Origin: an uncultured Subdoligranulum sp.
GTDB taxonomy: Bacteria; Bacillota; Clostridia; Oscillospirales; Ruminococcaceae
DNA length: 64,000 nucleotides
Assembly (NCBI GenBank): GCA_945830575.1
Contig: CALZZE010000014.1
Coordinates: forward strand, 117 to 64,116
Direction of reading: 5' to 3'
Shown here: positions 19,249 to 46,200 of the stretch, piece after piece
Layout of the letters: the number at the start of each line of letters is the position of its first letter
Numbering within the stretch: the stretch's first letter is position 1
The notes under the pieces: generated by a model
The model's database searches: none
What the model saw: the letters and a program-made list of their open reading frames with translations, nothing else
What the model was told of the DNA's origin: nothing
Translations under genes and position numbers: made by a program

Positions 19249-19265
19249 AATAGGTAGAGTGAATG

Positions 19266-28600: not shown

Positions 28601-30210
28601 GTCTGCCACCTCTTCCGGAAGTGCTGCCTTATCAAATGGCGGATACAAAAGCGAAACAAAACATTGAGGTGGGCGTGGGCTTGTATGATGACCCGGACAA
28701 CCAGTATCAGGGCAAGGTAGTTCTTGATCTCACTGCGAGCAATACGATGATTATCGGTTCTTCCCAATATGGAAAAACCAATCTTCTGGAAGTTCTTCTC
28801 CGGGGATTACAGGAACGGTATACACCTCAGCAAGTGAATGTTTACATCCTGGATTTTGGCTCCATGATTCTAAAAAATTTTGAGAGATCTCAGCTTGTTG
28901 GTGGTGTGGCCTGTGCCTCTGAAGATGAGAAAGTCAAAAACCTCTTCAGACTGATCATGCGCTGCCTTGCAGAACGTAAAGAGAAACTGTCTAAGGTAGG
29001 AGTCAGTTCCTTCGCTTCTTATCTGGAAGCCGGTTATACGGATATGCCGCAGATTGTAATCATGGTCGACAATTTTGTAGGACTGAGAGAACTGTACCTG
29101 TCCGACGATGATGTCTTACTTCCGATTTGCCGGGATGGACTATCTTACGGTATCAGCGTTATTATGACAACATTGCAGAGTTCAGGCGTTGGTTATCGGT
29201 ATATGAGCAACTTCGCACAGAAAGTGGTTTTGTACTGCAATGACAGCGGGGAATACTCCTCGGTTTTCGACAGATGCCGTATGCAGCCAAGCAATGTTCC
29301 GGGACGCGGATTGATTGAATTGGATAAGACAGTTTATGAGTTCCAGTCATATTTGTGTTATGAAGCAGACAGAGAAATTGAAAGAGTCAAGGCAATCCGA
29401 GAGGAAATTGCCGGTGCAAACCGTCGTTTTGGTGAGATGAAGGCAAAACCTATTCCAGAAATTCCGACCGTTCTTGATATGGCCTATGTGCAGCAGAACT
29501 TCAATGAGCAACGAGAACCATATCGTATTCCTATTGCCATGGATTATGAATCTGTGGAATGGGTTATGCTGGATCTGCGCAGGATTTCTACAATTTGTGT
29601 CACTGGACGCGAAAGGTTTGGGAAAACCAACTTCTTGAAACTGGTGATGAATCACTTACAGAACAATCTGTTTGATGAGCCTTCAGAAGTTTTCATATTT
29701 GACGATTACCGCCGTCAGCTTGCAGATTTCACGAAATATGGCATGGTTGAAAAATATACGGTGGATCGAAGCGAATTGGATATTGTGCTGGACCAGATAG
29801 AAGCTGAATTGAAAGAACGCCAGAAAATGGTTCGGGATGGACTCGACATTCAGGATGAGCCATTGCTTCTGTGTGTGCTTCAGGATGAGGATATTCTTAC
29901 AGCGGATGGGCTTAAGAAAGCGCAGGCGGACATCATTCGGCGTATTGTAAAAAATTATGGAAAACTGAAAGTATGCTTTATCTTTGCGGAGGTGGAAAAT
30001 GCGGCTTTCGGATACAGCGCACCGGAAGGAATCAAGCTGGCAAGAGAAAGTGCCTTCACCATTTTGTTTGATGATTTGGCAAATCTCAAACTTGTGGATG
30101 CGGGGACTGCGAATATCCGCAAGTTCAAGAAACCAGTTTCGTTGGGAGATGCGTATCTGATTACAGATAAGAATGTTATCAAGCAGAAAGTAATTCATGC
30201 AGAAGAATGA
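25663..30210 (+). CDS. essC: Type VII secretion ATPase EssC
   Basis: N-terminal FHA-like region, TM hairpin, three P-loop domains (GTTGSGKS with IIVDEF, GSSQYGKT, GRERFGKT), RSLGVHLILATQKP. Confidence 0.95.
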   Translation: MDMQYKAILANKTIYKEIPLPANATTVSVGTAPGVDVRLSKNLFFEQFELLFTNEGSDWVVTCSPNVYISAGSSSKLPQKQLVHGDELQVKYHSTDVEMVSMSIMVDFDEVDQDFFRAIDLKDHTKVMIGGANQCDIRITDKEVANDLVALTAQGQGWQLEEVRSNYGVYVNGTRIQRKALLRNHDFFALDKYKFFVRGSRLYTTEAPEIQVHGLAQRLEKPSSNSLAYPKFNRTTRMKTKPNTEEITVLDPPEMPQKPQESLVATLLPALAMLVVTVVIRGMMSSTSSSFVLLSVCTMGIGIVTSIANYISNKKKYKKEVEERRKKFTSYIDQKKQFIDTARQEELRDLEQMYYSDMQDAKHIMEFSDKLFDRTASDDDFVEVYLGKGSRTSLRQIKYKEQEKIEVVDDLAQVPEKIKEDYKELEGAPVTLALSKYDAVGVVGSYRQNFQMLKNMTMDLASRHYYTDLHLYYICSEEHAAEIRWARWLPHTENAALGIRNIVCDTASRNLIFEQLFVQLSAEKERNSKNDTVQERSVLFVLDDMGINQHPISQYIRNCKEKGVTFVFFSSCPEYIPQNCGALIRMGENNGEAELIQSDDSQNVQKFVYDVLPDALVEQACLKLAPVYCDEVSLEGSLTKNYSFFQMMNIFGPEDLDLQKNWDSANIKKTMRAPLGINAKKETVYLDLHEKAHGPHGLVAGTTGSGKSEILQSYILSMAIHYHPYEVGFLIIDFKGGGMANQFRNLPHMLGAITNIDGKEIDRSLKSIKAELQKRQRLFAEYDVNKIDDYIEKFKQGQTKIALPHLIIIVDEFAELKADQPEFMKELISAARIGRSLGVHLILATQKPSGQVNEQIWSNSKFKLCLKVQNQEDSKEVIKSPLAAEIREPGRAYLQVGNNEIFELFQSAYSGGPSKADENVAEHEFSLQECNLWGKRDVIYRKTKNKTGEEGRGQTQLDVVVGYVESYCETSNIQKLANICLPPLPEVLPYQMADTKAKQNIEVGVGLYDDPDNQYQGKVVLDLTASNTMIIGSSQYGKTNLLEVLLRGLQERYTPQQVNVYILDFGSMILKNFERSQLVGGVACASEDEKVKNLFRLIMRCLAERKEKLSKVGVSSFASYLEAGYTDMPQIVIMVDNFVGLRELYLSDDDVLLPICRDGLSYGISVIMTTLQSSGVGYRYMSNFAQKVVLYCNDSGEYSSVFDRCRMQPSNVPGRGLIELDKTVYEFQSYLCYEADREIERVKAIREEIAGANRRFGEMKAKPIPEIPTVLDMAYVQQNFNEQREPYRIPIAMDYESVEWVMLDLRRISTICVTGRERFGKTNFLKLVMNHLQNNLFDEPSEVFIFDDYRRQLADFTKYGMVEKYTVDRSELDIVLDQIEAELKERQKMVRDGLDIQDEPLLLCVLQDEDILTADGLKKAQADIIRRIVKNYGKLKVCFIFAEVENAAFGYSAPEGIKLARESAFTILFDDLANLKLVDAGTANIRKFKKPVSLGDAYLITDKNVIKQKVIHAEE

Positions 30211-30221
30211 GGGTGCATGTT

Positions 30222-30542
30222 ATGGCGGACAACTCTACGGCCAGTGCTGGTGCACATGTGGATTATCTGGACAGTTCCGGCTTTGATGAAGCAATAAAAG
30301 CTTTTGAAACGGCCTGCAACAAGTACAAGGATATCAAATCGTCGGTAGAAAGAGAAACGGCATCTCTTCTTTCCGTTTGGGAAGGTGAGGGTGCAGCCCA
30401 GTTTGAAAAAGACTACAGACTGATTTATCAACAACTGGATGATATTTTGGATTTGATGTATGACCTTTATAACGGATTGATTGAGGCTCAGGCCGCCTAT
30501 CTGAAAACTGATCAGGAACTGTCCAAACAATATACTGCATAA
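30222..30542 (+). CDS. WXG100-family protein
   Basis: About 106 aa, helical, central WEG motif; follows essC. Confidence 0.85.
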   Translation: MADNSTASAGAHVDYLDSSGFDEAIKAFETACNKYKDIKSSVERETASLLSVWEGEGAAQFEKDYRLIYQQLDDILDLMYDLYNGLIEAQAAYLKTDQELSKQYTA

Positions 30543-30556
30543 AGGAGGACCGTTCC

Positions 30557-31024
30557 ATGAGCAAACAAACGGCAGCGATAAAAGCGAAAATTAATGCGGT
30601 AAAAAGAGAAAAGAGTGCGGCAGAGAAGGAACTTCGAAAACAGAAACAGAGACTGAAAGAAGTTCAGGAACTGGAGAATGGAATTCAGGATGTCTCCAGC
30701 AGTCATTGTTCAATATTCAATAACAACCTGTATCAGGGTACAGGTCAAATGTGTTCTTTGATTGAATGGACTGGAATTCGGAATAAAGCGTTCGAAATCG
30801 AATCGACACAGAAGGAAAAAGACCTCTGGAGCGATCCGTTGCTGGAGAATGCGGAGGACAGCCTGAGACAGGAGCGCAATGAAGTGCAGCGGAAAATCAA
30901 TGAGCTTGAACAGAAAATCGTGTCTTTGGAACGGGACATTGAGAATCTCCAACGTTCGCTCAAGTGTGCAGAGCAAAAGGAGCAGGAAGAAAAGCTTGCG
31001 ATGCAAAAGCAGGTAAAAGCTTGA
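30557..31024 (+). CDS. Coiled-coil WXG100-like / effector-partner protein (DUF5082-like)
   Basis: AAGGAGG RBS; helical hairpin with central EWTG. Confidence 0.6.
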   Translation: MSKQTAAIKAKINAVKREKSAAEKELRKQKQRLKEVQELENGIQDVSSSHCSIFNNNLYQGTGQMCSLIEWTGIRNKAFEIESTQKEKDLWSDPLLENAEDSLRQERNEVQRKINELEQKIVSLERDIENLQRSLKCAEQKEQEEKLAMQKQVKA

Positions 31025-31049
31025 TTCTGAGAGAGAGGGGGGATCCAGA

Positions 31050-32738
31050 ATGGGATCCATTACGATCAATTACAACCAGTTGGAAACCACAAAACGTTAT
31101 TTCAGGAATTGCTCGAATACAGCAGATAATTATGCAAAGGATCTGACGAGGAAGTACTCAAATAAAGCAAACCGGATTACGGGGGGAAGTTCCTTCAACC
31201 TCTCCCAAGCAGGCTATTATGTGGATCGGAAAATCCGGGAACTGGATGACAAGTCAATAAACTTCAAGCAGTTTTCCCAAAAAAATGATAGCTTTTGTGG
31301 TGTTGCCAAACGTGTAGACCGTGAAGTGAAACAATCGATTGAGGTCCGGCAGCATGACTACATGAATACCCATGACATGCATGTGTCGCCCTGGCTTGAA
31401 AGAATCATCAATTGGTGGGTTGATCTGGAGAACAGCAATCCCTTTTTCGCGGCTATCGGTGATGTGATCAATAATATTCAGGCTGGTTTTGCGAGCCTGA
31501 AGGAAGAGATCCGATACTGGTACAACTGCGCAGGTGGCCGTCAGGTACTCGATACGATCGGTGCAGTAATCGTGGCCGTGGGCGCTGTTGTGGGCGCTGT
31601 TGTGGCAGTTCTTGCCGTGCTTGCGGCATCGGGAGTCTGGGCAACCATAGCGGCAGTTTGTGGTGTTGTCCTTGCCGTTATTGCGGCTGTGGACGCTGGA
31701 GTGAATCTGGCTAACACGGTTCGACAAAACGAAGCGTTTGCAAATGGGGATAAAGCGTGGGCTAGTATTTATGGCGGGCTTGACAAGTTCAGCGACTGGG
31801 TTAAGTTTACCAATTTTGGGTCGGCAGAAGAAAATCAACGCTGGGGACGAGTGGCGTTTGCTGTAGAAGTCACGCGGTTTGTGTGCGAATGCGTAAAGAT
31901 CATTGACGGCTTTGTACAGTTGAGCGCGAAACTGGCAAATGTTCATCAATACTTAAAGAGCAACGGAGGTTTTTCGGGAATCTGGAAAGGAAAACATCTG
32001 CAGGACGGACAAATAGTTAATACCATTGTAGTCAATAAGGATGGGACCTATGGGAATGCTCCGACCGGATTGAAGGGGATTCTGAATATCTGGAAAGACG
32101 GAACGGCAAATATGCCCGACAAGATCCGGAAAGGATTCCAGTTTACGGATGAACTGAAAACCTGGAAAAACATCAAAAAAGTCACAGATGGTACGAAGTC
32201 GGTCCATTCGTATCTGACGACATTATTTGATTTCGGTGCAGGTATTACCGCCGCAAAGGGAATTTACGAATTAACAAAAAAGTATGGAGCCGGTTTCACA
32301 GGCACGATTGATAAAACGGGTCTGATTCAAACAACATCCGAAGACCTCATAAAGTTCAAGTGGAGCAAAGAAGTTTTTGGAAAAAGCGTGATTGGTAAAT
32401 TTGAAAAATTAAAAAAGTATCCTAATTCGTATTCGACTATGGTCAATGTGTCGGAAATAAAAAACTCAATTAAAGTACCAGCCGTGAATTCCGTCATGCC
32501 ACAAGCAGTAAGAGTTACACTGCCCAAACTGCCAGACTATTCGAATATTGCAGTAAAATTCCCGGAACTGGAACACCGATACAACTTTAGACTGAATCCT
32601 ATTGAACCTGGAAGAGGACTGATTCCTGCCATAACAATACCGCACATCCCATCCATTGATGTGAAACCAATTGCTCCGCTCCGCCCGGCATCACACTTTT
32701 CTTTCCCGGCAGAAATGCTGGCAGGAGGCTTGACATGA
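31050..32738 (+). CDS. Putative T7SS effector (helical N-terminus, hydrophobic core, unknown C-terminus)
   Basis: MGSITINYNQL resembles WXG/LXG N-termini; long Gly/Ala/Val hydrophobic stretch at about aa 170-220; follows two WXG-like genes. Confidence 0.6.
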   Translation: MGSITINYNQLETTKRYFRNCSNTADNYAKDLTRKYSNKANRITGGSSFNLSQAGYYVDRKIRELDDKSINFKQFSQKNDSFCGVAKRVDREVKQSIEVRQHDYMNTHDMHVSPWLERIINWWVDLENSNPFFAAIGDVINNIQAGFASLKEEIRYWYNCAGGRQVLDTIGAVIVAVGAVVGAVVAVLAVLAASGVWATIAAVCGVVLAVIAAVDAGVNLANTVRQNEAFANGDKAWASIYGGLDKFSDWVKFTNFGSAEENQRWGRVAFAVEVTRFVCECVKIIDGFVQLSAKLANVHQYLKSNGGFSGIWKGKHLQDGQIVNTIVVNKDGTYGNAPTGLKGILNIWKDGTANMPDKIRKGFQFTDELKTWKNIKKVTDGTKSVHSYLTTLFDFGAGITAAKGIYELTKKYGAGFTGTIDKTGLIQTTSEDLIKFKWSKEVFGKSVIGKFEKLKKYPNSYSTMVNVSEIKNSIKVPAVNSVMPQAVRVTLPKLPDYSNIAVKFPELEHRYNFRLNPIEPGRGLIPAITIPHIPSIDVKPIAPLRPASHFSFPAEMLAGGLT

Positions 32739-33361
32739 GAAAATACTTTACGGTGGATGAAAAGCAGTATCAGTCTCTGGCAAAGCAATGGTTGAAACGC
32801 TCCCCCGAAATGAAGAAGTGGAAATGGATCAGCCGGATGTTTTACATCGGCGCGGTTGCCGCGTTCTTCTGGATGGTGTGGTACCTTTTTCCGTCATCTA
32901 CGCAAGACACAATGATCGTGGTCATGAGTGTGGTGATGGGCCTCCTTGCGGCTCTGGTTGTCGCATGTGTCGGGGTGGTTGTTTCTAAAAGCGGAGTCTC
33001 TGTTTTGGGCGGTCAGGCATATTATATGTCGCAGATGCAGTTGTGTTACGATGAAGAAAATCTGATTCTGGCATATCACCCCTATCTCGACAGGTCTGAC
33101 CTTACCAGTATTGGTGTTAACACGGTCCCTTTCTCAAAAATTGAATCCGTAGAAATAGAAAAAGATACGTCTCTGGTTACAATCAATGGTTCGTGTACCT
33201 TTGACCTGTACAGAACCGTCGCAGGGCAATCGGTGAGGATGGAAGAATCAGACAGAAAATACAAAAAATGGTCCAGTCTCCGATTCTTTATGGCGATTCA
33301 GGAAAAGGCGGCGTTCTATCAAATGTTACAGGAACATAGAATTCCGATCAAAGAAATGTGA
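32735..33361 (+). CDS. Two-TM membrane protein, candidate immunity protein
   Basis: ATGA overlap with the effector gene; two TM helices followed by a soluble beta-rich domain. Confidence 0.55.
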   Translation: MRKYFTVDEKQYQSLAKQWLKRSPEMKKWKWISRMFYIGAVAAFFWMVWYLFPSSTQDTMIVVMSVVMGLLAALVVACVGVVVSKSGVSVLGGQAYYMSQMQLCYDEENLILAYHPYLDRSDLTSIGVNTVPFSKIESVEIEKDTSLVTINGSCTFDLYRTVAGQSVRMEESDRKYKKWSSLRFFMAIQEKAAFYQMLQEHRIPIKEM

Positions 33362-33370
33362 GGTGTGACA

Positions 33371-34720
33371 ATGGATCAGATAGAGTGTCAGGAATATCTT
33401 ACCCGGGCACAGGTTTTGATGCAGCAGGGCCAGTATGAAGCGGCACTGGAACAGCTGGATGGTGCGGAACAAAGCAACCGGATGGAACAGGATGTTTATC
33501 TGAGCAAGGGTATTTGTTATGCAAATCTGGATCAGATTCAGCAGGCAGAGGAGCAGTTCCGGAAAGCGCTGAAACTCAATCGGAAAAATGGCCTTGCGAT
33601 GTTCCACCTTGGAAACATCTATATGATGACAGGACGCAGCCAGGATGGCCTTGAAATGTATAACAACGCCATCGGATGCGGTTACAAGGATCCACAGATT
33701 TTCTTTACCTTGGGACTTTACTTTGAAGAAGAAGATAATGTGGAGATGGCACTCCGCAATTATGCGAAAGCCTATCAGACAGAGCCGACCCGTGCGGATG
33801 CACGCATCCGCCGTATTTCCCTTTTGCTGAGAACTGGACAGCTTGAAGCCGCCTTGCAGGCGATTGACGAGATGATCGTATTTTGTCCGGATGTATTTGA
33901 AGGATATCATGCTCGTTTCATGGTCCTTATGCAGATGGGGAATCTGGAAGAGGCGGAAAAAACAATCAAAAGTGCCATGGAGATGTTTCCCAGCGATGTG
34001 GGATTTGCAACGGACTATATAAAGCTGCTGCTTGCTCAGGGAAAGTCCCAGGAGGCAACTGCCTATATCGAGGACGTACAGCAAAGGATGGAATTCAGCG
34101 ACCCGGAAAAAGCTGAATTGGAATTGGAGAAAGCGCAGATTGCCTCTGAAAAAAATGATTTGGAGGGAACGATCGCATCGCTTACGAAAGCAAAACAACT
34201 TTCCGGTAAAGAAAATGTGGAGCTGACGCAAAAAGCGGAGTTCCTTTTGGCAAACTGCTATATGGCCAAATCCCAGTGGGAACAGGCGCTTGCGGAATTA
34301 AGGCTTGTCAAAAGTGATACTTACAAAAGTGAATTCAGTGCGGCTGTTTTATATATGGAGCCGCTGGTGCTTAAGCAAATGGGCAGTCAAGAGGAGGCTG
34401 TAAAACAATATCGGGAAGCAATCAAGACACTTCGGGCTTTGTCCATGGCGAATCCGGGACAAATCGACTACACGATTTACCGCATCTTCTGCCACCGAGA
34501 TATTGGTGAAACCGAAAAGGCATTGGATTTGTGTGATTATCTGGGAAAAATTGCCGGAAACATCGCAGAGGTTCATACGGCAAGAGCAACTGTCTTACGG
34601 GTAATGGGCCGAAACGAAGAAGCAGCAGAAGAAGAAAAGATTGCAGCCCAATTAGGCGGAGTCAGTCAGGAAATCTCTGAAAAGTTGAACCAAAAACAGG
34701 CAGGGAATGAAAATGGGTAA
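33371..34720 (+). CDS. Tetratricopeptide-repeat protein
   Basis: Repeated TPR patterns (GQYEAAL, YLSKGICY, FHLGNIY, AIGCG); GAGGT RBS favours ATG 33371. Confidence 0.9.
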   Translation: MDQIECQEYLTRAQVLMQQGQYEAALEQLDGAEQSNRMEQDVYLSKGICYANLDQIQQAEEQFRKALKLNRKNGLAMFHLGNIYMMTGRSQDGLEMYNNAIGCGYKDPQIFFTLGLYFEEEDNVEMALRNYAKAYQTEPTRADARIRRISLLLRTGQLEAALQAIDEMIVFCPDVFEGYHARFMVLMQMGNLEEAEKTIKSAMEMFPSDVGFATDYIKLLLAQGKSQEATAYIEDVQQRMEFSDPEKAELELEKAQIASEKNDLEGTIASLTKAKQLSGKENVELTQKAEFLLANCYMAKSQWEQALAELRLVKSDTYKSEFSAAVLYMEPLVLKQMGSQEEAVKQYREAIKTLRALSMANPGQIDYTIYRIFCHRDIGETEKALDLCDYLGKIAGNIAEVHTARATVLRVMGRNEEAAEEEKIAAQLGGVSQEISEKLNQKQAGNENG

Positions 34721-35006
34721 CCGTCTTATTGTGAATCAGGAAGCGCTTGCGCAGGCAAGTCGTACATATCATACAGCGGCATCAGATATGACAATAGTAT
34801 GTACTGATTTGGAGAAAGCGCTTGCGGACCTGAGACAGAAATGGAAAAGCACAGGCAGTCAGGAGTTTTTCAAGGAATTCGATGACACATGGAAGACAAA
34901 CATGAGCAAGTACACTTCTGTGATAAACCATATGTCAGAGAATGTCGTGGATGCAAATCACAGGTATCAGGAAATTTTTGATGAGGCATACCGGCTACGT
35001 TTGTAA
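34707..35006 (+). CDS. WXG100-family protein
   Basis: 99 aa; LIVNQEALAQAS start; central WKSTG (variant WXG). Confidence 0.75.
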   Translation: MKMGNRLIVNQEALAQASRTYHTAASDMTIVCTDLEKALADLRQKWKSTGSQEFFKEFDDTWKTNMSKYTSVINHMSENVVDANHRYQEIFDEAYRLRL

Positions 35007-35125
35007 TTCTGATTTCGGTGTGAAAGAACTCAGCAAAGAATCCCGGGAACCGGGGAAATTGATGCTATCGCCGGACAAAAGCAATTGTTCGGTGTGTAGA
35101 CAATATATTTTGGAGGTAAATCATT

Positions 35126-35425
35126 ATGGCTATGCAAATCAGAATGACTCCGGATGAGCTTCGCGCTGCTGCGGATTTTATCATGGAGCGCAAGGACGCG
35201 ATTGCTCAGGAGGTCGCTTCCTTGAAGGGAAAGATTGATGAAGTGACGGGTAATTGGGAAGGCGCTGCGCAGAGTTCCTTTATTGAAACGTTTGAATCGC
35301 AGCTTTACCCGATTCTGAATGAGACTGCTCCTCAGGTGATGGAAGGGCTGTCTGCGCAGCTCAAGGGCGGCGCGGATGCCATCGAGCAGGCTGACGAAGA
35401 GGTTGCGAAGGCCTTCCGTGGTTAA
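35126..35425 (+). CDS. esxA: WXG100 protein, EsxA-like
   Basis: QIRMTPDELRAAA...NWEGAAQSSF...ADAIEQADEEVA; GGAGGT RBS; followed by a terminator. Confidence 0.88.
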   Translation: MAMQIRMTPDELRAAADFIMERKDAIAQEVASLKGKIDEVTGNWEGAAQSSFIETFESQLYPILNETAPQVMEGLSAQLKGGADAIEQADEEVAKAFRG

Positions 35426-35457
35426 TCAGACAACACAGTGCGTGTATTGAAATGAAT

Positions 35458-35503
35458 AAAACCGGGGGCGCTTCGCCTTGCGGGAACGCCCCCGGTCATT
35501 TTT
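35458..35503 (+). terminator. Intrinsic terminator after esxA
   Basis: ACCGGGGGCG...CGCCCCCGGT followed by CATTTTT. Confidence 0.65.
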
Positions 35504-35519
35504 CAAAAGGAACAGGTTT

Positions 35520-36035: not shown

Positions 36036-36061
36036 TACAATGGTTAAAAACGGGGATTCTT

Positions 36062-37177
36062 ATGACACTTTTTAAGCAGACGTTGGGTGGAAATCTTCGC
36101 TATAAGGTTGAAGACGATTGCATGCTGTCTCAGTTTGAGTTATACAGGCTGAAATCTATGCCGTCAAACAATTTGATAGAGGTGGAGCAGTCCAAAGCTG
36201 GAGAGGTCAGTTACACGATTTCAGGAATGAGTGTGCTTTCGACGGAACTGCGTGTAGGAATCACAGAATCTCGAATGGCGGAAATCGTGAAGCAAACGAT
36301 GGAAGTCGCCGATCATATTCGAGTTCTGGGATTGTCGGAACACAGAATCATTTTATCTCCGAATTATGTTTATGTGGATGGCAAAACCAAATCCTTAAGG
36401 TTTTTGTACCTTCCGGTCAATGGTCAATTATTAGGATATGACCTCTTGTTATTCGTAAAGGACATTATTTTGCAGTCGAAACTCGACGGACCTGTTCGAA
36501 TGAAATGGGATGCATGGTCGAGTCGATTACATTCTGATGGGAATTATACAAAGTATGTTCAGTCTATGCCGCTTATTGCGGTACAGGGAAATTCTGCAAT
36601 ACCAGATGACCCCAAAACGGTTATGGAAGATGGGGTAGACCCGTTGTTTCAGGACTGGCAGGGAGCTCCACAGGGCAGTGATACGAGGAACTTCTGGCCG
36701 GAGGAGCCGCCTACTACAAACGATGGAGAAAGTGTTTTGTCCGATTTCCCGGATTATGCCAGCGATGGCATGGACGACGATGAAGCCCCCACGGGTTTGT
36801 CCGACGACCAGAAATTCGATGCGATGGACAAGTCTGACGGTACATTTTTTGAATCCATGAGCGAGAGTGCCAGCAATATGGTGCGGGCAAGACTGATTCC
36901 TTTGGCTGGCGGAAACCCTGTTGAAATCACCAACAACAGCTTCAAGCTGGGCCGCAGTCGGCAGCGTGCAGATTACTGCATCGAAAACAACAGCATCAGC
37001 AACGTTCATGCAACCATTCTGCGGACGGGAAACCAGTTCTCGTTGAAGGACAACCATTCCACAAACAGTACTTATGTGGATGGAGTCAAGGTTGACCCGG
37101 ATGGAGCAGGAGCTCCGCTGACCAACGGCAGTGTGATACGGCTGTGGAAGCTGGAGTATCGGTTTGTGATTTTGTGA
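36062..37177 (+). CDS. FHA-domain protein (DUF6382-like N-terminus, acidic linker, FHA)
   Basis: FKLGRSRQRADY...ISNVHA...LKDNHSTNSTYVDG FHA motifs. Confidence 0.85.
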   Translation: MTLFKQTLGGNLRYKVEDDCMLSQFELYRLKSMPSNNLIEVEQSKAGEVSYTISGMSVLSTELRVGITESRMAEIVKQTMEVADHIRVLGLSEHRIILSPNYVYVDGKTKSLRFLYLPVNGQLLGYDLLLFVKDIILQSKLDGPVRMKWDAWSSRLHSDGNYTKYVQSMPLIAVQGNSAIPDDPKTVMEDGVDPLFQDWQGAPQGSDTRNFWPEEPPTTNDGESVLSDFPDYASDGMDDDEAPTGLSDDQKFDAMDKSDGTFFESMSESASNMVRARLIPLAGGNPVEITNNSFKLGRSRQRADYCIENNSISNVHATILRTGNQFSLKDNHSTNSTYVDGVKVDPDGAGAPLTNGSVIRLWKLEYRFVIL

Positions 37178-37188
37178 CTGGTGAAGCT

Positions 37189-37950
37189 ATGAATTATACA
37201 ATGAGTGCCGCAACCAATGTGGGTTCGGCAAGACCGACCAATCAGGACGGTGTAATTGTTCAGTATGCGGTAAAGGAATCCCACACATTCCTTTTGGCGG
37301 CCGTCTGTGATGGCATGGGCGGCCTTGAAGATGGAGAGGTTGCCAGCGCAACGGTGACCCTTGCGCTGAAGCAATGGTTTGACCGGAAATGTGCTGAGGA
37401 GTCTGTTCGGGATATTCACTCTCTGATGAATGACCTTGCAGATACACTGGGAACGCTCAATGAGCACCTCAAAGAATATGAAGTGCAGAGACGGACGCTG
37501 ATTGGAACGACATTGTCCTGCCTGCTGGCACTGGACGATGCCTGTGGCATATTTCATATTGGAGACAGCCGGATTTATCGAATTGATACGGCACTCTGTC
37601 AACTGACAACAGACCACACAGTCGTGGCCCGTGCCGTGGCGGAAGGTACAATGACAATGGAAGAGGCTGCGGTCAGTGCGGACCGCAGCAAGCTGACCCA
37701 GTGCTTTGGCGCGTCCAAACGATATGAGCCGGAGATTTTCTTTGATTCCGTGAAGCCAAACACCACGTTTTTGATTTGCAGCGATGGATTCCGGCACCGG
37801 CTGACAGAACAGGAATTGCAGATGAGGTTCAGCCCTTCTGCGCTACAGGGAGAACAGCGGATGCAGTTCCTTTGCGACCAAGCCATTCAGGACGTGATGC
37901 GCCGTGGTGAGAAGGATAATATTTCGGTTGTATTAGTCAAAGCAGATTGA
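37189..37950 (+). CDS. PP2C-family Ser/Thr phosphatase
   Basis: TNQD, AVCDGMGG, HIGDSRIY, LICSDG, DNIS. Confidence 0.92.
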   Translation: MNYTMSAATNVGSARPTNQDGVIVQYAVKESHTFLLAAVCDGMGGLEDGEVASATVTLALKQWFDRKCAEESVRDIHSLMNDLADTLGTLNEHLKEYEVQRRTLIGTTLSCLLALDDACGIFHIGDSRIYRIDTALCQLTTDHTVVARAVAEGTMTMEEAAVSADRSKLTQCFGASKRYEPEIFFDSVKPNTTFLICSDGFRHRLTEQELQMRFSPSALQGEQRMQFLCDQAIQDVMRRGEKDNISVVLVKAD

Positions 37951-37951
37951 G

Positions 37952-39643
37952 GTGAATGCTGTGCTGGCGGTTGGGACAGTACTGGATAACAAATATGAAA
38001 TTATCAAACAGATTGGCAAGGGCGGCACCTCGTTGGTCTATTTGGCGATGAATCAGAAGCTGAATCAGCAGTGGGTTATCAAGGAAATCCGCAGTGAACT
38101 GGACGCAGCAGCCAAAAACCGTATGCTGCAGGAAGCCCGTTTGATGATGACCTTTGATCACCCGGCGATTCCGCGTATTGTGGACATTCTGGACAATACC
38201 TACATTGTCATGGATTACGTTTCGGGCCAATCGCTGGCCCATGAGTTGAAAGAGCATGGGCCGGTTTCTCAGGAAACAGCGGTGGAGTGGGGAAAACAGA
38301 TTTGCAATGTGCTGGTTTATCTGCACTCTCAGGATCCCCCCATCATCTACCACGATTTGAAACCCGGCAACATTATTCTGAAAATGCCCGAACGAAATCT
38401 GAAGCTGATTGACTTTGGCGAGGCCCGGAAATGTGTGAACGGGAATGCCCCCGGCGGTGGCAAAACAAGGGAATACGCCGCGCCGGAGCAGCAGACGGAA
38501 ACAAGAGGCAACACGGATCCCCGCACGGATATTTACTGTTTCGGCACCACGATGTACCGGTTGCTGACGGGGCAGTTTGTTCCACCTTATCCGGAGCCGG
38601 TCGGCTCGATCCGGGAGCGGTTTCCACAGCTGCAAATCTCCAAAGGCATGGATAACATTATCCGCAAATGTACCCGGAAAGACCCGGACAGGCGCTTTCA
38701 GTCTGCGGAGGAGCTGATGCAGGCGCTGGATAACATCGTGCTGTGGGACGAAGATTATCTGGCAAAGCAGAAAAGAAAAATCCATCTGTGTGTTGGTTCA
38801 CTGGCCGCAGCGGCGGTGATGCTTGTGGCGGGAATTGGATTCAACCGGGGCGCAGCTTTTCAGGACAGCCAAACCTATGAAAGTCTCATTGGAACCGAGG
38901 CGGCGCTGGGGTATGAAAGCCAGGTCAGCAATTATCTTGAGGCAGTTGCGCTGAATGGACAGGATACCAGAGCGTACACCAAGCTGGTGGAGGCGTACCA
39001 AAGCAACGGCGTGTTCGGGGATGAACAGAGCCAGCAGCTCGGAAATGCCTATAATGCCAACAAGGCAGGATTTACCATGAGCGATCCCGACATGGTGGAG
39101 CTGAACTATCAGATCGGTCACTTGTACTTCAATATGTATACCGGGGACGGCAATGCATTCCGCTCGCGGATTCAGAAGGCACAGGGATACTTTACTTATG
39201 TGGTGGAATATGGCTCTGCCACAGATGAACATTATCAAATTGCCAGCAGCTATAAAACGCTGTGCGACTTTTTTACCAGCTTTGTGCTGAATGACAGCAG
39301 TGTTCTGGAGCCGACAGAGGAAGATTATCGAGCCATGATGGCAGCCATTGAGACCTGTATGGAGGACATGCAGGGCTATGCCTCCAGTGATGCCGCTTAT
39401 ACCCGACTGACCCTGTACCAGAAAATCATGGACGCGGTGAATACCAATATCCGGGGCTTTGCGCAAAACGGCATTGAGCAGACGGAGGTCCGCCAGCTTG
39501 TCCAGAATACGCTGAATCATGTCAGAAACGAAAGCGTGACGCAGCCCACATCGGTGGCACTGCAAACCAGCATTGTGGACCAGGGCGAGGACGTACTGGA
39601 CAACATCACCCGCGAATACGACAGTATGAAGAGAGGTAACTGA
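37952..39643 (+). CDS. Hanks-type Ser/Thr protein kinase with TM and extracytoplasmic helical domain
   Basis: GKGGTSLVY, WVIKE, YHDLKPGN, LIDFG, YAAPE, DIYCFG; TM at about aa 280-300. Confidence 0.92.
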   Translation: MNAVLAVGTVLDNKYEIIKQIGKGGTSLVYLAMNQKLNQQWVIKEIRSELDAAAKNRMLQEARLMMTFDHPAIPRIVDILDNTYIVMDYVSGQSLAHELKEHGPVSQETAVEWGKQICNVLVYLHSQDPPIIYHDLKPGNIILKMPERNLKLIDFGEARKCVNGNAPGGGKTREYAAPEQQTETRGNTDPRTDIYCFGTTMYRLLTGQFVPPYPEPVGSIRERFPQLQISKGMDNIIRKCTRKDPDRRFQSAEELMQALDNIVLWDEDYLAKQKRKIHLCVGSLAAAAVMLVAGIGFNRGAAFQDSQTYESLIGTEAALGYESQVSNYLEAVALNGQDTRAYTKLVEAYQSNGVFGDEQSQQLGNAYNANKAGFTMSDPDMVELNYQIGHLYFNMYTGDGNAFRSRIQKAQGYFTYVVEYGSATDEHYQIASSYKTLCDFFTSFVLNDSSVLEPTEEDYRAMMAAIETCMEDMQGYASSDAAYTRLTLYQKIMDAVNTNIRGFAQNGIEQTEVRQLVQNTLNHVRNESVTQPTSVALQTSIVDQGEDVLDNITREYDSMKRGN

Positions 39644-40182
39644 TGATGTCAAATATCTTTTCGATTCTGTCGATTGTCTGCTTTGCACTGGCGGGTATTC
39701 TGGCAATCGCAGCGGTAGTGCTATTCTTTGCGCTGGATGTGCGCGGCGTGTATGAGGAATTACAGGGGCGTGCGCCTGTCAAAAAGGAGCGGCGAAAGAA
39801 GGAAAAGCCGCAAAAGGAAACGCCCACCCAAACCGACCGGGAGACGCCCACACTCGTACAGGACGAGGCAGTCACGGTGCTGGACAACGGCGAGTTGGAT
39901 TTGGATTCGCTGGTGACCTACTATGAACCGGGAACGGAATTCGGGGAGGAAACCACCGCGTTGGATGCGGAACAGCCAACGGCGGCCGAAATCGGGGAAA
40001 CCGAAATGCCCACCGTCATGGGAGAGGAAGAGGCTCCTACGGCGTTGGAGGACACACCCGAAGAAGCATTGACTTCGTTGGAGGAAGCGGACACCGCAGC
40101 CGACCAAACACAAACCGGGTTTGTATTGCAGAAGGACATTGTACTGACCAATCGGGAAAAGGCATTGTACCAACTGATTTAA
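39643..40182 (+). CDS. Membrane protein with acidic Thr-repeat tail
   Basis: N-terminal TM; about 8 E-x-x-T-x-x-(D/E)-like units. Confidence 0.7.
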   Translation: MMSNIFSILSIVCFALAGILAIAAVVLFFALDVRGVYEELQGRAPVKKERRKKEKPQKETPTQTDRETPTLVQDEAVTVLDNGELDLDSLVTYYEPGTEFGEETTALDAEQPTAAEIGETEMPTVMGEEEAPTALEDTPEEALTSLEEADTAADQTQTGFVLQKDIVLTNREKALYQLI

Positions 40183-40222
40183 TATAAAAATAGAGGAAAT
40201 TCAACTGGAGGATTGATGAAAT

Positions 40223-43200
40223 ATGAACCAAAGTACCTACACATTGGGTCATAGGATTCTCGCCCTGCTGTGCGCGTTGGCATTGGCCATTGGCTTGATG
40301 CCCACCGCAGCGTTGGCGGAAGCGGTTATGCCGTTGACGGAAACAGCGGTAACAGGAGTGACCCTGAAAAATGGAGAAACCCCTGTTACTGAGCCAATCA
40401 CGATTTACACCACAGCACCGAACAACACCCTGACGCTCACTGCGACCGTGGAGCCGGAAGGAGCTGTCGGAGATGTGATCTGGACAAGCGGCAATCTGGA
40501 GGTTGCCACCGTTGACAACAATGGTGTTGTGACTGCGGTTGCTGCCGGCACTGCTACGATTACAGCCACCGCAACGAATGGCACGGATAGCACTGATGAT
40601 GACATGCCGGAAACCTGCACCGTTTCTGTCAAAAAGCACGTTGATACCATCACGCTTACACCGGCAACGACTGTGCTGACGATTACGAATACCGTGTCAA
40701 ATCCTACCACGACCATTGCCGTAGCATATGGGCCTGAAGATGCAGATGAAGCCGAGAAAAGTGTGACCACTTGGGAAAGCAGCGACAGCACTGTTGCAAC
40801 TGTCGCAAATGGTTCAGTAACCGCACTTAAAGCTGGTAAGACAACCATCACAGCGAAAAACAGCAATGGTGTAAGCGGCCAGTGCGAAATTACCGTCACG
40901 GAAACGACCGCCACGGGGATCACGATTAAGCAGGGAGATGCTGTGGTCAGTACCCCGTTGGAGGTTGTCTATGGTGAGTCGGTACAACTGACAGCGGCGG
41001 TGGAGCCTGAGGGTGCTGTTGGTAATGTAGAGTGGAGCAGCAGCAATCCGGAGGCGGTTTCTGTTGATGAGACTGGCAAGGTGACGGTCAACAACGTTGT
41101 TGATGACGAGGTTACCATTACAGCTAAAATTGGTGGACAGTTTGCCACTTGCACAATTGAGACCAAGAAAAAAGCTGTTGAGATCACGAACATTGTGTTC
41201 GCGTCCCGTCAATACGACGGAAAAACAAGGCTGTCGGATGTGCCGACCATCACCTTGAATCCCGCAGTAGAGAATGCCGTTGTGGAAGGGTTGACTTTCA
41301 CGGTGGAATCTTCCGATGCAGGGGAAAATAAGATTGTCTCGGTGACTTGCGGTAGCCTTTCTATCAAAGATGACCCCAATTATCAGGTGACCATGCATCA
41401 GGGTTTGGAACCGACCATCACGATTATCCCGAAGCCCCTCAATGTCATCTTGTCAGACCAGACTTACAACGGGACGAGCACATATTCCGGGGTTGTTGCT
41501 ACTGTTGGTGGATTGATTGAAGAGAACGCTTCCACAGAGTATCAGGTTACAGCTTCCGCACAGAGTAAGATTGATGCGGGAAACGACAAAGCCGTTACCA
41601 TTACATGGCCGGATGATGACCGCGATATCACAAACTATACCTGGCCTACTGAGGGGAACCTAAAGGTTAACCCGAAACCCATCGCATTCAGGGTAAAAGT
41701 CGACAATAAGGGATATGATGGAACAACCGCAGTGAAAGCCATCTTATACAATACCACAACGGACGCTCCGGTGGGTGATGACGTAAGTACGCAACCAGGA
41801 ACAGGCACTTTTACCAATTCGCTTACAGAGGATAATCTGGAATTTATCGGCACTGGCGTCATTGATAATGACACGGAAAATGTTGGCGTGAAGCTGAAAG
41901 AAAATGCAACGGTCAGCATTTCGTTGAATAGAACTGAGACTACCAATTACGTCCCGAAGTTTACAATCGACTCTGCGAATATTACCAAGAACAGCTACCC
42001 GGAGGATACAGGTTTTGCCCTCCCGAATGCAGACTATACGCAGAATACCACCGAAGGAAGTATCCGGTGGTACAAAGTTGAATCGGAAAACCGTACAATT
42101 GGTATTGCGGCAATGAGCGGCTATGCGATTGCCAGTGAAGAAGGAGGAGCCTACGCCAGTTCCATTTCGGTGTCCCCGTCTGAAAATGACGCGGTGACAG
42201 TGTTTGTGAAAAACACTGCCGACAATACGCTTTCTAAGGAAATAGTAAACAATATTAAGGTGGATTATACAGCCCCGTCTATTGATACGGAAGGAGCAGC
42301 AGGAAATCTTGCTTTTGGGCAGGACGGCAGTGTTACTTATACCATCAAAGTGACCGATGAAGATTCCGGAGTGAATCCGGAAACAGTGCAATACTGCATC
42401 AGCAACAGCAGTTCTTCCAGCGATGGAGCTGAATGGACGCGGGCTGTTGTGGATGGGGATGTTGACAACAATGGTTACACCTTTACTGTTACCGCGCCCA
42501 AGACTGGCTATGTGTATGTAAAGGCTACAGATAACGTTGGCAACACCTATGAAACCAGCTCTATCCGTGCTTTGGTACTGGAAACGCAGATGCCGACGGT
42601 GACAGCAACCTGTGCTGATGCAGGAGATGCCGCAAAGACCCACACTATCCGGTGGACCGCCTCGGATGCTGAGGAAGCTGGCAGTGATCCGTATTCCTAT
42701 TCCGGCATTCGGTTGGTTATTTATGAGTTGAAAAAAGATGGGACAGTAGTCCAGACAGGCAAACTGAAAGAGAACGACGCGCCCACAGAGATGTCTGGCC
42801 TGCCAAGTGTGCGCGCATGCGATGAGAACTATCTTATAGACAATGCGCAATTGGACGGGGAATACACCCTGACCGTCACCGCAACGGATTTTTGTGGTAA
42901 TTCCCAAACCAGTGATCCGCTGACATTGCAATTCGATCATACGCCTCCGACGGTAACTGTTGCCATGTCCGGCGGCGTTGAGATGGATGGAACATTTTTC
43001 TACAACGCCAACAACTGTGGTATTACCATCACAGTTGGCGATAACTATCTGGCGCAGGGGGTCTCCTATACAGCGGCGCTGGAAGGAATGGATAATAGAA
43101 CCGGAACATTGAGCGGCGGAGCAAACGTCATTGCATTCAGTAAGGAAGAGGTAGCAGCTTCCGGGGACAGCGTTTCCAAAACCCTGACGCTCTCACTGAC

Positions 43201-46200
43201 GGATAAAGCGGGCAATACAACGTCTGAAATAACTACCCGTGTCGGTGTGATTGGTAGCGGTATGCAGGCTTTCTTTTCGCTGGATACTACCCCGCCCCGC
43301 CTGACTGTGGTAACCACCAGTGTGGCTACCAGCGGCTTGTATACGGATACCAACGCAGCTTACTACAATGCGGATTCTGTCACAACTACCTTCACCATCG
43401 TGGAAGCCAATATGCCTGCACAGTGGGATTTGAGCTATACAGCCGATAACTCCACTCAACCTGCGGATATGGCGGCATCTGCCGAAGGAAATGTTTCTGT
43501 TATTCTGACGGAAGAAGGAACGTACTCCAGTATTGCGGTTGCTGGACAGGACAAGGCTGGGAACAAGCTCGAATTGGACGCCATTTCTCCGAATCCAGAG
43601 GATGTGGTCACCTGCAGCAACGGGAAAGCGGTACTGACCTATGCCAAGGTGCTTGACCGCACTGCGCCAACGGCGGTGATTACCTATCCTGCTACGGCTA
43701 ACCCTTTGTATCCCAGTGATGAAGGAGAAAACACCGGCACGGCGATCTATTATAATTCCGATGCAACTATTGAAATTCAGATAGCCGACACATATGGCAC
43801 TATAGCAGTTCCCATTGATCTGGCCAAACTGACTGCTAAACTGAATGGAAGCACGGGAGTGACGGTTTCTAATTCAGGGGCAGCCAGCGTATCGGTCACG
43901 GAGGACAGCCGGAACACGGTTGCCGTGTTCGGTACGGATCGCGCAGGAAATACCCTTCAGGTGAAGGAAATCATTGACGGAAAACAAGGCAGTGAAACGC
44001 CTCTGGTTAGCGCATTGGATTCCTACGCCTCTGTCTACACTGTAGTCCGGGATACCGTGGCCCCGGTGTTGACGCTGGATTTCAATAACACTGACACCAC
44101 CGGCTCCTATTATGAGGCCGATAAAGGCACCCACTACTACCCTGAAAATGGAAAATACCGTGCGTATTATGGCAATACCGTTACGACAATTATCCCGTTG
44201 GTGACGGCAATCGTTGATGCAAACGGCGTTGATTTCTCCAGAATATTCTCGGCCACAAATGAGAGTGCGTTTGCACCCCTTGGGGCAGATAAGACGAACT
44301 ATGGTGTAAATGGTTCGGAGCGGGCGATGGTGGAAGAAGTGACCAGGGATGGAGACTACCTTTTCTTCATCTACGGTACGGACAAAGCCGGCAACGCTCT
44401 CGTGGTCAAAGAAAACAAAAAGACCAGTGATGTGGATGTGGATAATGAGGGAACTCCTGGATGCGGTGATGTAGAGCATAAGTATAGCACATATCCGAAG
44501 ACATTGGATACCAAAGCTCCGGAAGTTGTTTTGAGCTATGCTTTCGCGGATGACACTCCGCTGGAGGCAACGCATTACTACGACAACAACGCCTATTACA
44601 AAAATTCTTTTGCTGCGACTTATGCCTACTCCGATGAAAACGGCATTGATTTGACCAAGGTTTTCAAGACGGTGGCCGCCAGCGAGGGAAGTGGATTCGG
44701 CGCTGTAGGAACAAATCCGATTGATGTTTCGGACAAAATTGAAATCCCGGCCTCTGTGGACAATAACGGCCATTATCAGTTCGGTGCCTACGGTGTCGAC
44801 AAGGCGGGTAATGCACTGACCGTGAAGGAAATGAATACTTCCGGACCGGCTGTGCAGGCTCCCGATTCCACCGGAAGAAATGCCGACAACAAGTTTGTCA
44901 GCATTTATCATAAGGTGCTCGATACAGTCAACCCGGTTGCGACCATTACGGTTGATGCGGGGAACTCTCTGCGCAAGGAACTGCAAACCAACTACAACAA
45001 CCGGTATTACTTCAACGACAGCTTTACCACGACGATCTCTGTTGCGGAAACCAACTATGATGCTGCGAAAGTAACGGCTCGTGTTGGCAGCGTCAACAGC
45101 AGCACAGTAGAACAAAACGGAAAAACGCTTCAGACACAGGAGGTCTCGGCAACATCGGTGCTGACTACACACGAGGCCGCCAGCCCGTATATGTATTCGC
45201 AACAGGTAACCGCTGATGGTGTATACTGTTTTGATCTGAAAGGCGTCGACCGTGCGGGCAATCAGATTGTCCTGAATGGTGGGGATCGTGCTGCTAATTT
45301 TGTACAGACGGTAGTAAATGACACAATCGGTGATGAACTTACAGAGCGTTATGTCACATATGCGTTTGCGGAAGATAAGACGGCTCCCGTGCTGAATGTG
45401 ACCATGAAAGACGCCAACAACAAAAACAATGGTTTCAATCAGCAGACGGGCAACTTCTATGAAGCAACTCTTACCTCTGTCGGGTATCAGCTGAGTACGA
45501 ACTATCCGTATCGTTCCAGCAAGGTTGCAGATTTTGCCTTCACGACAAAAGACAACAGTCCTGTTACGGTTTTGTACAAGGTGGACTCCACCGCAGCAAA
45601 CAGCAACTTCGCTTACGAACGCAATGGTGCTGCGGGAATGATTGGACAGGCCGGAGCTGCTGGAGCAGAGGCCTATGTAGATGGTCTTGCCTACACCCAG
45701 CAGACGGCAGATAAGGAACAGATCCTCCAAATCAACTCCCTGTTGATTGAAGATTTGGCCGGCAACCAGGTATCCTATTCCAAGACGGAAAACGAAAACA
45801 AAATTTATCTGGATGTGTCTGCCCCGACCGATGACCAGTTGCAGCCTGTCGTTCGTTTGAGCTATCCCAGTCCTGTGACCCAGAATACGATGAGCCACCG
45901 TGACATTAGCGGCGTGAATCTGTATAAGGACACCGTTGTTGTAACCGCAGATGTGATGGATCCGTACACCAATGCATCGCAGGAAGCGAGAGGCTCTGGT
46001 TTGTACCGGGTGTATTATAAGGTCACCGTGAACGGAGAATCGCAGACAGGAAAGGTTGGCATTCAGACCGGCAGCGGGAAGTCTGCTGTGGCAGCAGATG
46101 ATGGCGTTTACTACATCGATTACAATACCACAGGACAGTCCGGCCCGGTGAATGGCGGAAATGAAACGCTTACCGCATCGGATAAACTGACGTTTACGTT

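Follow-up and report, generated by a model that had tools for sequence, protein, structure and literature searches.

Kinase-equipped type VII secretion system (T7SS) variants are common in gut Clostridia and are known from genome surveys only, and the targets of their kinases have not yet been named. Which proteins such a kinase might phosphorylate, and which proteins might read the mark, is the question raised by a T7SS cluster that spans 23.3–48.1 kb of a 64,000-nucleotide stretch of DNA from an uncultured Subdoligranulum sp. (hereafter the window, to which all positions refer). All genes of this cluster are co-directional on the + strand. An earlier sequence-only reading of the window had placed a kinase, a PP2C phosphatase, and two FHA proteins in the cluster and had proposed that phosphorylation gates the assembly or the trigger of the secretion machine. 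All four proteins are encoded there on the + strand, as judged by open reading frames (ORFs) and Pfam matches, and every peptide quoted in that reading is found in the translations. On balance, the sequence data lead us to favor the view that the locus is a horizontally acquired T7SS variant with its own threonine-phosphorylation circuit. A phosphorylation-gated T7SS is the most economical reading of the intact catalytic and ligand residues in the kinase, the phosphatase, and one FHA protein (FHA2), of a motif threonine that is never replaced by serine, and of the linkage of a seven-gene set to the YukD and EssC genes. One element of the earlier proposal, in which the ATPase EssC itself reads phosphothreonine (pThr), did not survive.

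The candidate substrate at the center of this circuit is a TsxH-like protein of 179 amino acids (39643..40182), a membrane protein with one transmembrane (TM) segment and an acidic cytoplasmic tail (hereafter the tail protein). Its ATG overlaps the stop codon of the kinase gene (TGATG), and the tail protein is translationally coupled to the kinase. The protein consists of a TM anchor (aa 11–29), a basic stretch (aa 46–58), and an array of threonine units (aa 59–154; 39817–40104). Because the N terminus is uncharged and nine Lys/Arg residues follow the TM helix, the acidic tail is assigned to the cytoplasm by the positive-inside rule. Twenty threonines face two serines in its composition. The sequence-only reading had counted about eight repeated threonine units here, and the repeat is real. 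The strict pattern ExxTxx[DE] occurs seven times compared with 0.80 expected occurrences, a count that none of 20,000 permutations preserving residue composition (0/20,000) reached, and the relaxed pattern [DE]xxTxx[DEG] occurs nine times (1.4 expected). When three looser copies (ETPTLVQ, EPGTEFG, and EMPTVMG) are added to the seven strict ones, the tail carries 10 ExxT units.

A profile search of 1.8 billion representatives recovered 166 clusters of tail-protein relatives (E ≤ 1e-3). The full layout, comprising TM anchor, basic stretch, core units, further units, and a C-terminal hydrophobic peptide, is common to ∼26 of these clusters. One orthologue is 54% identical and keeps both the units and the C-terminal peptide (DI.LT.R.KALYQLI). 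The core assumes a fixed order, in which [DE]EA.T[VT]L[DE].GE is followed after ∼10 residues by YEPGT[DE] and then by a variable number of units; in the window, the two core units read DEAVT78VLD and YEPGT98E. The threonine of the first core unit, DEAVT[VT]L[DE], is kept in 26/26 clusters and that of the second in 28 of 29 (the exception being an alanine), and serine was never seen at either position. Among 434 tail threonines from 33 representatives of the family, Glu stands at −3 in 47% (a 3.0-fold enrichment), Pro at −1 is enriched 2.4-fold, and Leu at +2 is enriched 2.8-fold.

Outside the threonine array, the tail protein ends in a conserved, non-acidic peptide, FVLQKDIVLTNREKALYQLI (40120–40179; aa 160–179). 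Its pattern, F.LQKDI.LT.R.KALYQLI, becomes F.I.K..I.HS.E.I in distant relatives, and it could serve as a docking peptide for the kinase, for EssC, or for a pseudokinase domain. A distant branch of the tail family (P0055, P0056, P0059, and P0060) possesses the same TM anchor and a C-terminal “I.HT.E.I” peptide. In the arrays of this branch, E-x-T-x-L-L units (EEATSML, DDNATTLL, and ETGLL) replace ExxTxL[DE], and in one member, seen on short contigs, the tail gene is followed by that of an Ig-like surface protein.

The same unit recurs in FHA2 (36062–37177; DUF6382, E = 3e-8; FHA, E = 1.8e-15), as the sequence-only reading had noticed. FHA2 is organized in an N-terminal DUF6382 domain (36062..36577), a disordered acidic linker with four conserved threonine units (36578..36880), and a canonical FHA domain (36884..37177); residues 175–271 show pLDDT values <50 in an AlphaFold2 (AF2) model, which marks the linker as disordered. 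We found 21 homologues with the same two-domain layout, and 19 of these, with identities as low as 32%, were aligned. The alignment of the linker reveals three copies of E-A-x-T-G-[LMIV]-[DE]-[DE], which in the window correspond to DDPKT186VMED (36605–36631), EEPPT218TNDG (36701–36727), and DEAPT244GLSDD (36779–36808). The copies of the window (DPKTVMED, EPPTTND, and EAPTGLSD) are the most degenerate of the family. For T186, T218, and T244, respectively, the threonine is kept in 18/18, 19/19, and 19/19 sequences and is never serine, Glu is found at −3 in 16/18, 19/19, and 19/19, and Asp or Glu is found at +3 in 15/18, 19/19, and 15/19. The linkers are otherwise poorly conserved, and serine outnumbers threonine in them overall, which makes the strict preference for threonine at the motif position meaningful. 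T261, which lies within DGT261FFES (36836–36856; aa 259–265) and has Glu at +3, is also a candidate pThr site, the fourth in the linker and unlike the other three in type. The pattern D-G-T-[FY]-x-E-S is present in 19/19 orthologues, ∼15 residues before the FHA domain.

Taken together, the tail and the FHA2 linker follow the consensus E(−3) A(−2) [PV](−1) T x [LM](+2) [DE](+3). The shared unit, E-A-x-T-x-[L/M/I/V]-[D/E], appears not to have been described before. Thr motif arrays are not mentioned in the available portions of the text and supplements of the survey that defined the kinase-equipped systems (Garrett & Palmer 2024, microLife, PMC11217815), in which the published alignment of TseJ shows “GTTVL” twice in the linker. 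We also considered whether the motif is common elsewhere in the proteome, which can be ruled out. In a six-frame scan of the 2.88-Mb genome, the strict form EA[PV]Tx[LMI][DE] occurs in only two ORFs, namely the tail protein (two copies) and SbcD, and the SbcD match is a chance occurrence within the folded nuclease. Recent tandem duplication of DNA is likewise ruled out as the origin of the units, since Tandem Repeats Finder shows no such array in either the tail or the linker of FHA2, and the sole row that it gives in 36000–40300 is a 9-bp repeat of 2.1 copies inside the kinase gene.

The gene directly upstream of the tail gene encodes a membrane Hanks-type Ser/Thr kinase (TsxD; 37952..39643; Pkinase, E = 2.7e-42). 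It comprises a kinase domain (aa 15–258), a juxtamembrane stretch of 20 residues, a TM helix (aa 279–297), and an extracellular domain of ∼265 residues. When aligned to StkP and PknB, the glycine-rich GKGGTS, the lysine of VIK, YHDLKPGN, DFG, and APE are all present, and the kinase belongs to the non-RD type (YHD, with His instead of Arg). The kinase is thus catalytically intact and active-looking, and we predict it to be active. PknB-type kinases usually carry a phospho-acceptor juxtamembrane segment between the catalytic domain and the TM helix. The corresponding 20 residues of this kinase contain zero Ser and zero Thr, and the tail therefore looks like a juxtamembrane phospho-acceptor segment that is supplied to the kinase in trans.

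The opposing enzyme is a PP2C/PPM Ser/Thr phosphatase (TsxF; 37189..37950; PP2C_2, E = 1.4e-11). The ORF list starts this gene at GTG 37144, but the lengths and spacing of the orthologues favor ATG 37189. Its matches in the PDB are Stp1-type phosphatases, tPphA, PstP, and PppA of a type VI secretion system (T6SS; PDB code 6jkv). The motifs CDGMGG, GDSR, SDG, and KDN align to the Stp1-type phosphatase 6ihl, so that the enzyme is intact in its metal-binding motifs and is predicted to be competent.

Two proteins of the cluster qualify as predicted readers of pThr. In the FHA domain of FHA2, the ligand residues G297-R298, S313, H316, and T334-N335 show little or no variation, and Foldseek searches with the full-length model returned FHA matches only, among them the pThr-binding domains of EmbR, GarA, FhaA, DgcB, and Rad53 FHA1 (E ∼1e-7 to 1e-8). 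The second protein, FHA1 (TsxJ-like paralogue 1; FHA, 4.4e-17; DUF6382, 1.4e-6), likewise possesses a kinase-like DUF6382 N-terminal domain followed by a C-terminal FHA domain (23416..24303). The ORF list starts it at GTG 23359, and the Met used by the orthologues points to ATG 23416 as the probable start. GR and SRxH are invariant in the four FHA1 orthologues. By these residues, FHA2 would be a fully canonical and FHA1 a near-canonical reader. We found no acidic threonine units in FHA1. No hydrophobic or TM segment was found in either FHA protein and no signal peptide in FHA2.

The N-terminal domains of the two adaptors could connect them to the secretion machine. The DUF6382 domain of FHA2 modeled alone with AF2 (14 sequences; pLDDT 89, pTM 0.85) adopts a truncated protein-kinase fold without catalytic residues. 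The top Foldseek matches in the PDB (E 9e-5 to 1e-3) are without exception protein kinases, among them YukC/EssB of Bacillus subtilis (PDB code 6z0f; E 8.4e-4, TMq 0.41). At the sequence level, a DUF6382 profile gave no match in the PDB. Aligned by eye, the DUF6382 segment “R.ILSPEYIYVD...LKFIYLPVNG” lies opposite the kinase segment “HRDLKPENILLD...VKLIDFG”, and the catalytic Asp, the Lys, and DFG are all replaced. DUF6382 thus models as an EssB-like pseudokinase fold, an assignment that is new in this analysis; the published Foldseek table for TsfJ lists a “protein kinase domain-containing protein” (Garrett & Palmer 2024, PMC11217815).

The sequence-only reading had assigned a further pThr reader to the N terminus of the EssC-type T7SS ATPase (25663..30210; TIGR03928, 1184 bits with a cut-off of 778; FtsK_SpoIIIE, 1.6e-51). 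Residues 1–230 (25663–26350) indeed contain two FHA-like domains (FHA, E = 1.7e-6; Yop-YscD_cpl, E = 1.9e-10), which precede two TM helices at aa 262–308. However, the GR, SxxH, and NG residues are absent. The protein has IGG for GR (“IGGANQ”), AxxL for SxxH (“VANDLVAL”), and YG for NG (“SNYGV”), and the orthologue in one related locus (L001) is likewise degenerate (IGD and S-K-Y-G). The peptide “EEITVLD” of EssC is not conserved either, since the L001 orthologue reads “EEKIKILD” with Lys in place of Thr. The sequence therefore does not support EssC as a pThr reader or as a substrate, and we rejected both roles. In the published systems, by contrast, TseC reads ITIGR, SASH, and NG, with GR/SxxH/NG kept in 98/99/90% of TseC sequences, and the kinase-bearing subtypes d, e, and j keep the FHA motifs of their ATPases in 90–100% (PMC11217815). 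Over its first 700 residues, EssC scores 177 bits against TsfC, 154 against Staphylococcus aureus EssC, 104 against TseC, and 86 against TsjC, a comparison that is indicative only because the published sequences were transcribed from a supplement PDF and the identity to TsfC is 25%. The N terminus aligns to TsfC at E = 2e-16, and the two have “YGVY(V/I)(N/D)G” and “FYKEI” in common. An f-like ATPase with pThr-blind FHA domains thus stands beside a full e-type signaling set, which suggests that phospho-reading has been delegated from the ATPase to separate adaptor proteins.

We envisage the following sequence of events. The extracellular domain of the kinase would receive a signal, possibly by way of the adjacent giant Ig protein, and the kinase would then phosphorylate the threonines of the units. 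The tail would act as a multivalent juxtamembrane pThr platform in trans to the kinase, and its phosphorylated units would draw FHA2 and, probably, FHA1 to the membrane through their FHA domains. The pThr units of FHA2 itself might lead to head-to-tail oligomerization or to self-occlusion. The pseudokinase domains could next bind EssC at its degenerate FHA domains, in the manner of EssB in T7SSb, so that the ATPase would be assembled or activated, and the PP2C phosphatase would reset the circuit. In its most specific form, which we regard as possible rather than probable, this proposal holds that EssB has been replaced by a pThr array acting in trans, by soluble DUF6382-FHA adaptors, and by a pThr-blind EssC engaged through pseudokinase domains; assembly would be conditional on a surface signal, and E-A-x-T-x-L/M-D/E would be the code between kinase and reader. 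If true, this replacement of EssB would explain how T7SS variants assemble without EssA, EssB, and EsaA. The conserved units name T78 and T98 of the tail and T186, T218, T244, and T261 of FHA2 as candidate sites, and the E-A-x-T-x-[LM]-[DE] units make the phosphorylation-controlled T7SS hypothesis of 2024 directly testable at the bench.

Several observations weigh against this proposal. The sequence-only reading had invoked the +3 specificity of FHA domains for Asp. Asp or Glu at +3 is nearly fixed in the conserved core units, but it is enriched just 1.4–1.5-fold across the wider tail family, where it is weak outside the core and exceeded by Glu at −3 and Leu at +2. The motif may therefore reflect the specificity of the kinase rather than that of the FHA domains. 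The activation loop of the kinase (GGGKTREY) is itself unlike the threonine unit. The number of tail units ranges from ∼4 to 10 between relatives, which indicates strong constraint on two to three units only. On the side of the readers, FHA1 lacks the Asn of the “NG” motif, with Phe, Tyr, or Lys in its place among the orthologues, and in the AF2 model of full-length FHA2 the linker is not docked onto the FHA domain. The likeness of DUF6382 to kinases is structural only, with TM-scores of ∼0.4–0.5, and the EssB-like contact of DUF6382 with EssC is pure analogy.

Of the other explanations, the one that survives best is a switch of the GarA/OdhI type, in which the phosphorylated linker of FHA2 folds onto its own FHA domain and turns the adaptor off or on. 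The tail would then be a competing ligand or a kinase-docking decoy, and the switch could coexist with the recruitment model. The layout of FHA2 matches that of proteins known to work in this way, for example EsrG1 with its pT152 (PMC13622651), the complexes of GarA and DgcB with FHA-bound tails are among the top structural matches, and the four invariant threonines lie 30–90 residues from the FHA domain. Nevertheless, we consider such a switch rather unlikely as the main function. The undocked linker of the AF2 model speaks against it (with the proviso that AF2 cannot model pThr), and it leaves unexplained both a kinase-coupled membrane protein with up to 10 units and the FHA domain of FHA1, a protein without units.

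A second alternative concerns the output and draws on the order of genes across related loci. We compared orthologous loci drawn from metagenome assemblies (numbered with the prefix L). In L001, L004, and L005, which come from three independent assemblies, the order is FHA1, ParA-like ATPase, FHA2, PP2C, kinase, tail, giant Ig protein, YukD, and EssC, with the ParA-like gene always between FHA1 and FHA2; L004 and L005 lie in a chromosomal context. In the window and in L006, a Ruthenibacterium sp. metagenome-assembled genome (MAG), a block of EssC, WXG, and TPR genes sits between the ParA-like gene and FHA2, and the gene order of the accessory block in L006 is that of the window at 30207–35425. 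L059 has the order TPR, WXG, WXG, 185-aa protein, kinase, tail, and giant protein. The adjacency of kinase, tail, and giant protein is thus found in 6/6 loci (the window, L001, L004, L005, L006, and L059), and the seven-gene set (FHA1, ParA-like, FHA2, PP2C, kinase, tail, and giant Ig) stands beside YukD-EssC in five independent loci. The giant-protein orthologues at the matching position are 2100–2560 residues long and carry Big_2, Big_13, or CarboxypepD_reg matches. Among contigs, a search with FHA2 as the single query gave no match, and a profile scan found only two loci that are truly orthologous, one in a MAG of Ruthenibacterium sp. and one in a MAG of Acetatifactor sp., with the remaining matches being of the FHA domain only.

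The seven-gene set is therefore separable from the EssC/WXG block, being contiguous in L001, L004, and L005, whereas the T7SS substrate block interrupts it in the window and in L006. This would suit a portable surface sensor that travels with T7SS genes and whose output is transcriptional or a remodeling of the envelope, like Esr1 of Schaalia, which acts transcriptionally (PMC13622651). We regard this view as distinctly improbable. No DNA-binding domain was found in FHA1, FHA2, or the tail with Pfam or NCBIfam, the signaling set abuts YukD-EssC or WXG100 genes in every locus recovered, and the fold of DUF6382 resembles that of EssB, itself a T7SS component.

It is very improbable that the units have nothing to do with phosphorylation and are acidic short linear motifs, for example for the TPR protein encoded in the locus, or a by-product of composition in an acidic, disordered spacer. 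The tails are very rich in Glu, Asp, and Thr, and the units outside the core drift fast in number and position, as such a view would expect. Composition alone, however, yields 0.8 units in shuffled tails instead of the seven observed, the core threonine is never serine across ∼45 independent sequences though serine is common nearby, and the same unit appears in two unrelated proteins whose genes flank those of the kinase and the phosphatase. Hardly credible is a reversed topology with the tail as a Thr-rich, possibly glycosylated extracellular stalk, for although the N-terminal hydrophobic segment could serve as a signal peptide and the neighboring gene encodes a surface protein, the n-region lacks a positive charge and nine Lys/Arg follow the helix, the motif is shared with FHA2, a protein without TM segment or signal peptide, and published DeepTMHMM predictions place the TsdH and TseH tails in the cytoplasm (PMC11217815).

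The locus has the hallmarks of an EssC-type T7SS of Bacillota, with an EssC/FtsK ATPase, three WXG100 genes, and a YukD gene. We compared it with the systems T7SSc–j that were defined from genomes (Garrett & Palmer 2024, PMC11217815). The parts described there include TsxD kinases, TsxF PPM phosphatases, TsxJ proteins with DUF6382 and FHA domains, ParA/TadZ-like TsfV, TsxH proteins with one TM segment and an unstructured cytoplasmic region, and giant Ig-like TsxI proteins. The same study already proposes that the T7SS is controlled by threonine phosphorylation, by analogy with the T6SS of Agrobacterium. The regulatory reading is thus already published in outline, and the value of the present analysis is that it is concrete and testable rather than surprising. 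New here are the shared motif, the mosaic composition of the locus with e-type and f-type features, and the modeling of DUF6382 as an EssB-like pseudokinase fold.

Within the kinase-equipped T7SSc–j, no one published subtype accommodates the locus, which combines the e and f types as a mosaic. It has in common with T7SSe (Bacillota; TseA1/A2, B, C, D, F, H, I, J, and K) the WXG100 proteins, the YukD-like protein, and an EssC-type ATPase with FHA-like N terminus, as well as the kinase, the PPM phosphatase, the one-TM tail, the giant Ig protein with signal peptide and C-terminal TM segment, and the DUF6382-FHA protein; the TseH and TseI assignments rest on architecture and position, not on sequence comparison. 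In contrast to T7SSe, the ATPase of the window is without GR/SxxH/NG and matches TseC worse than TsfC or S. aureus EssC, and the locus has two DUF6382-FHA paralogues and a ParA-like ATPase. For TseK, which has one TM segment and is zinc-ribbon-like, no counterpart was recognized; no zinc-ribbon match is found here, and an ORF of 185 residues (35478–36035) has a TM segment but no family match. T7SSf (Clostridia; TsfA, B, C, F, J, and V) provides the best match for the ATPase, including its degenerate FHA N terminus, and shares the ParA/TadZ-like ATPase, the PPM phosphatase, and the DUF6382-FHA protein, although a TadZ-like N-terminal domain was not detected in the protein of the window. According to the published account, T7SSf lacks a kinase and its TsfJ possesses two TM helices (PMC11217815). 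The window, by contrast, has a kinase, a tail, and a giant Ig protein, and neither of its FHA proteins has a TM helix. A full e-type signaling set here accompanies an f-like, pThr-blind ATPase, which shows that neither the e nor the f category, as published, is closed.

Compared with canonical T7SSb, the window lacks detectable EssA, EssB, and EsaA; no ORF between 23359 and 48070 gave a Pfam or NCBIfam match to EssA, YukC/EssB, or EsaA. In T7SSb, the pseudokinase EssB/YukC interacts with the FHA domains of EssC (Tassinari et al. 2022, PMC9600267; PDB code 6z0f). A catalytically dead kinase-like fold beside an EssC with an FHA unable to bind pThr is found there as it is here. EssB, however, spans the membrane, has an extracellular domain, and lacks an FHA domain, whereas DUF6382 is soluble, is shorter (∼170 residues), and is fused to a canonical FHA domain.

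Two further systems outside the Bacillota T7SSs show comparable logic. The Esr (epibiont sensing and response) pathway of Schaalia odontolytica, which is linked to Esx (bioRxiv 2026 preprint, PMC13622651), similarly combines a kinase and a phosphatase with a protein that forms surface filaments and with an FHA output protein, and it is tied genetically to a T7SS. Experiments showed that a kinase of this pathway phosphorylates a threonine in the disordered middle of the FHA output protein, EsrG1, with T152 identified by phosphoproteomics (PMC13622651); its layout of N-terminal domain, disordered phospho-Thr region, and C-terminal FHA domain is similar to that of FHA2. In contrast to the locus of the window, the Esr pathway is actinobacterial and is without a membrane tail array and without DUF6382. 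The T6SS is controlled by a threonine-phosphorylation pathway that consists of PpkA-PppA-Fha1 in Pseudomonas aeruginosa and of PpkA-TssL-Fha in Agrobacterium (Lin et al. 2014, cited after PMC11217815). This pathway places a membrane Hanks kinase, a PP2C phosphatase, and an FHA adaptor inside a secretion cluster, as found here. In Agrobacterium, the FHA protein binds a membrane component once this is phosphorylated, and we propose the same logic for the tail. The locus of the window differs in an unrelated machine, a Gram-positive host, a multivalent threonine array in place of a single site, and readers fused to a pseudokinase-like domain.

The cluster looks horizontally acquired, as suggested by a shift in G+C content, an adjoining recombinase, and the absence of a further full-length FHA2 orthologue in 400 genomes of the same order (including one of the same genus) beyond that of the window itself. 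The G+C content is ∼45–46% over 22–36 kb and ∼50% over 36–48 kb, compared with 53–57% upstream of the cluster, and a tyrosine recombinase gene (22100–23284) lies directly before it. Further upstream of this island, a TraG/VirD4-type conjugative coupling protein is encoded at 19263–21077, which gives this region of the contig the look of an integrative conjugative element.

The remaining genes of the cluster complete the picture. FHA1 is followed by a ParA/MinD-type ATPase (TsfV-like; 24314..25384; AAA_31, 6.9e-8) with an N-terminal extension of ∼125 residues and weak NCBIfam matches to BcsQ, Ssd/CpaE, and MinD, and then by a YukD/EsaB-like ubiquitin-fold protein (TsxB; 25395..25652; Pfam YukD, 29.1 bits with a cut-off of 27). 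The giant secreted Ig-repeat protein (TsxI-like; 40223..48070) comprises 2615 residues by translation, with a C-terminal TM anchor. Between EssC and FHA2 lies the T7SS substrate and accessory block identified with Pfam (30207..35425), which splits the signaling set of this genome into two halves. The gene order over 30207–36035 is WXG100, a coiled-coil protein, a 562-aa protein, a 208-aa membrane protein, a TPR protein, two further WXG100 proteins, and a 185-aa protein. The three WXG100 genes (30207–30542, 34707–35006, and 35126–35425) all score above the Pfam cut-off.

The TPR protein (33365–34720; 451 aa; Pfam) weakly matches PF21545, the TPR domain at the N terminus of EccA1 from mycobacteria (E = 7.9e-5, which misses the cut-off), but has no AAA domain, and it is kept in L006 and L059. 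Directly upstream of FHA2, the 185-aa membrane protein (35478–36035) contains a TM segment and has no family match. In L059, a gene for a 185-aa protein, also without a family match, lies directly upstream of the kinase, and in L006 an ORF of 164 residues lies upstream of FHA2. The 185-aa protein may be a further conserved component of the locus, with a putative kinship to the genes at these two positions.

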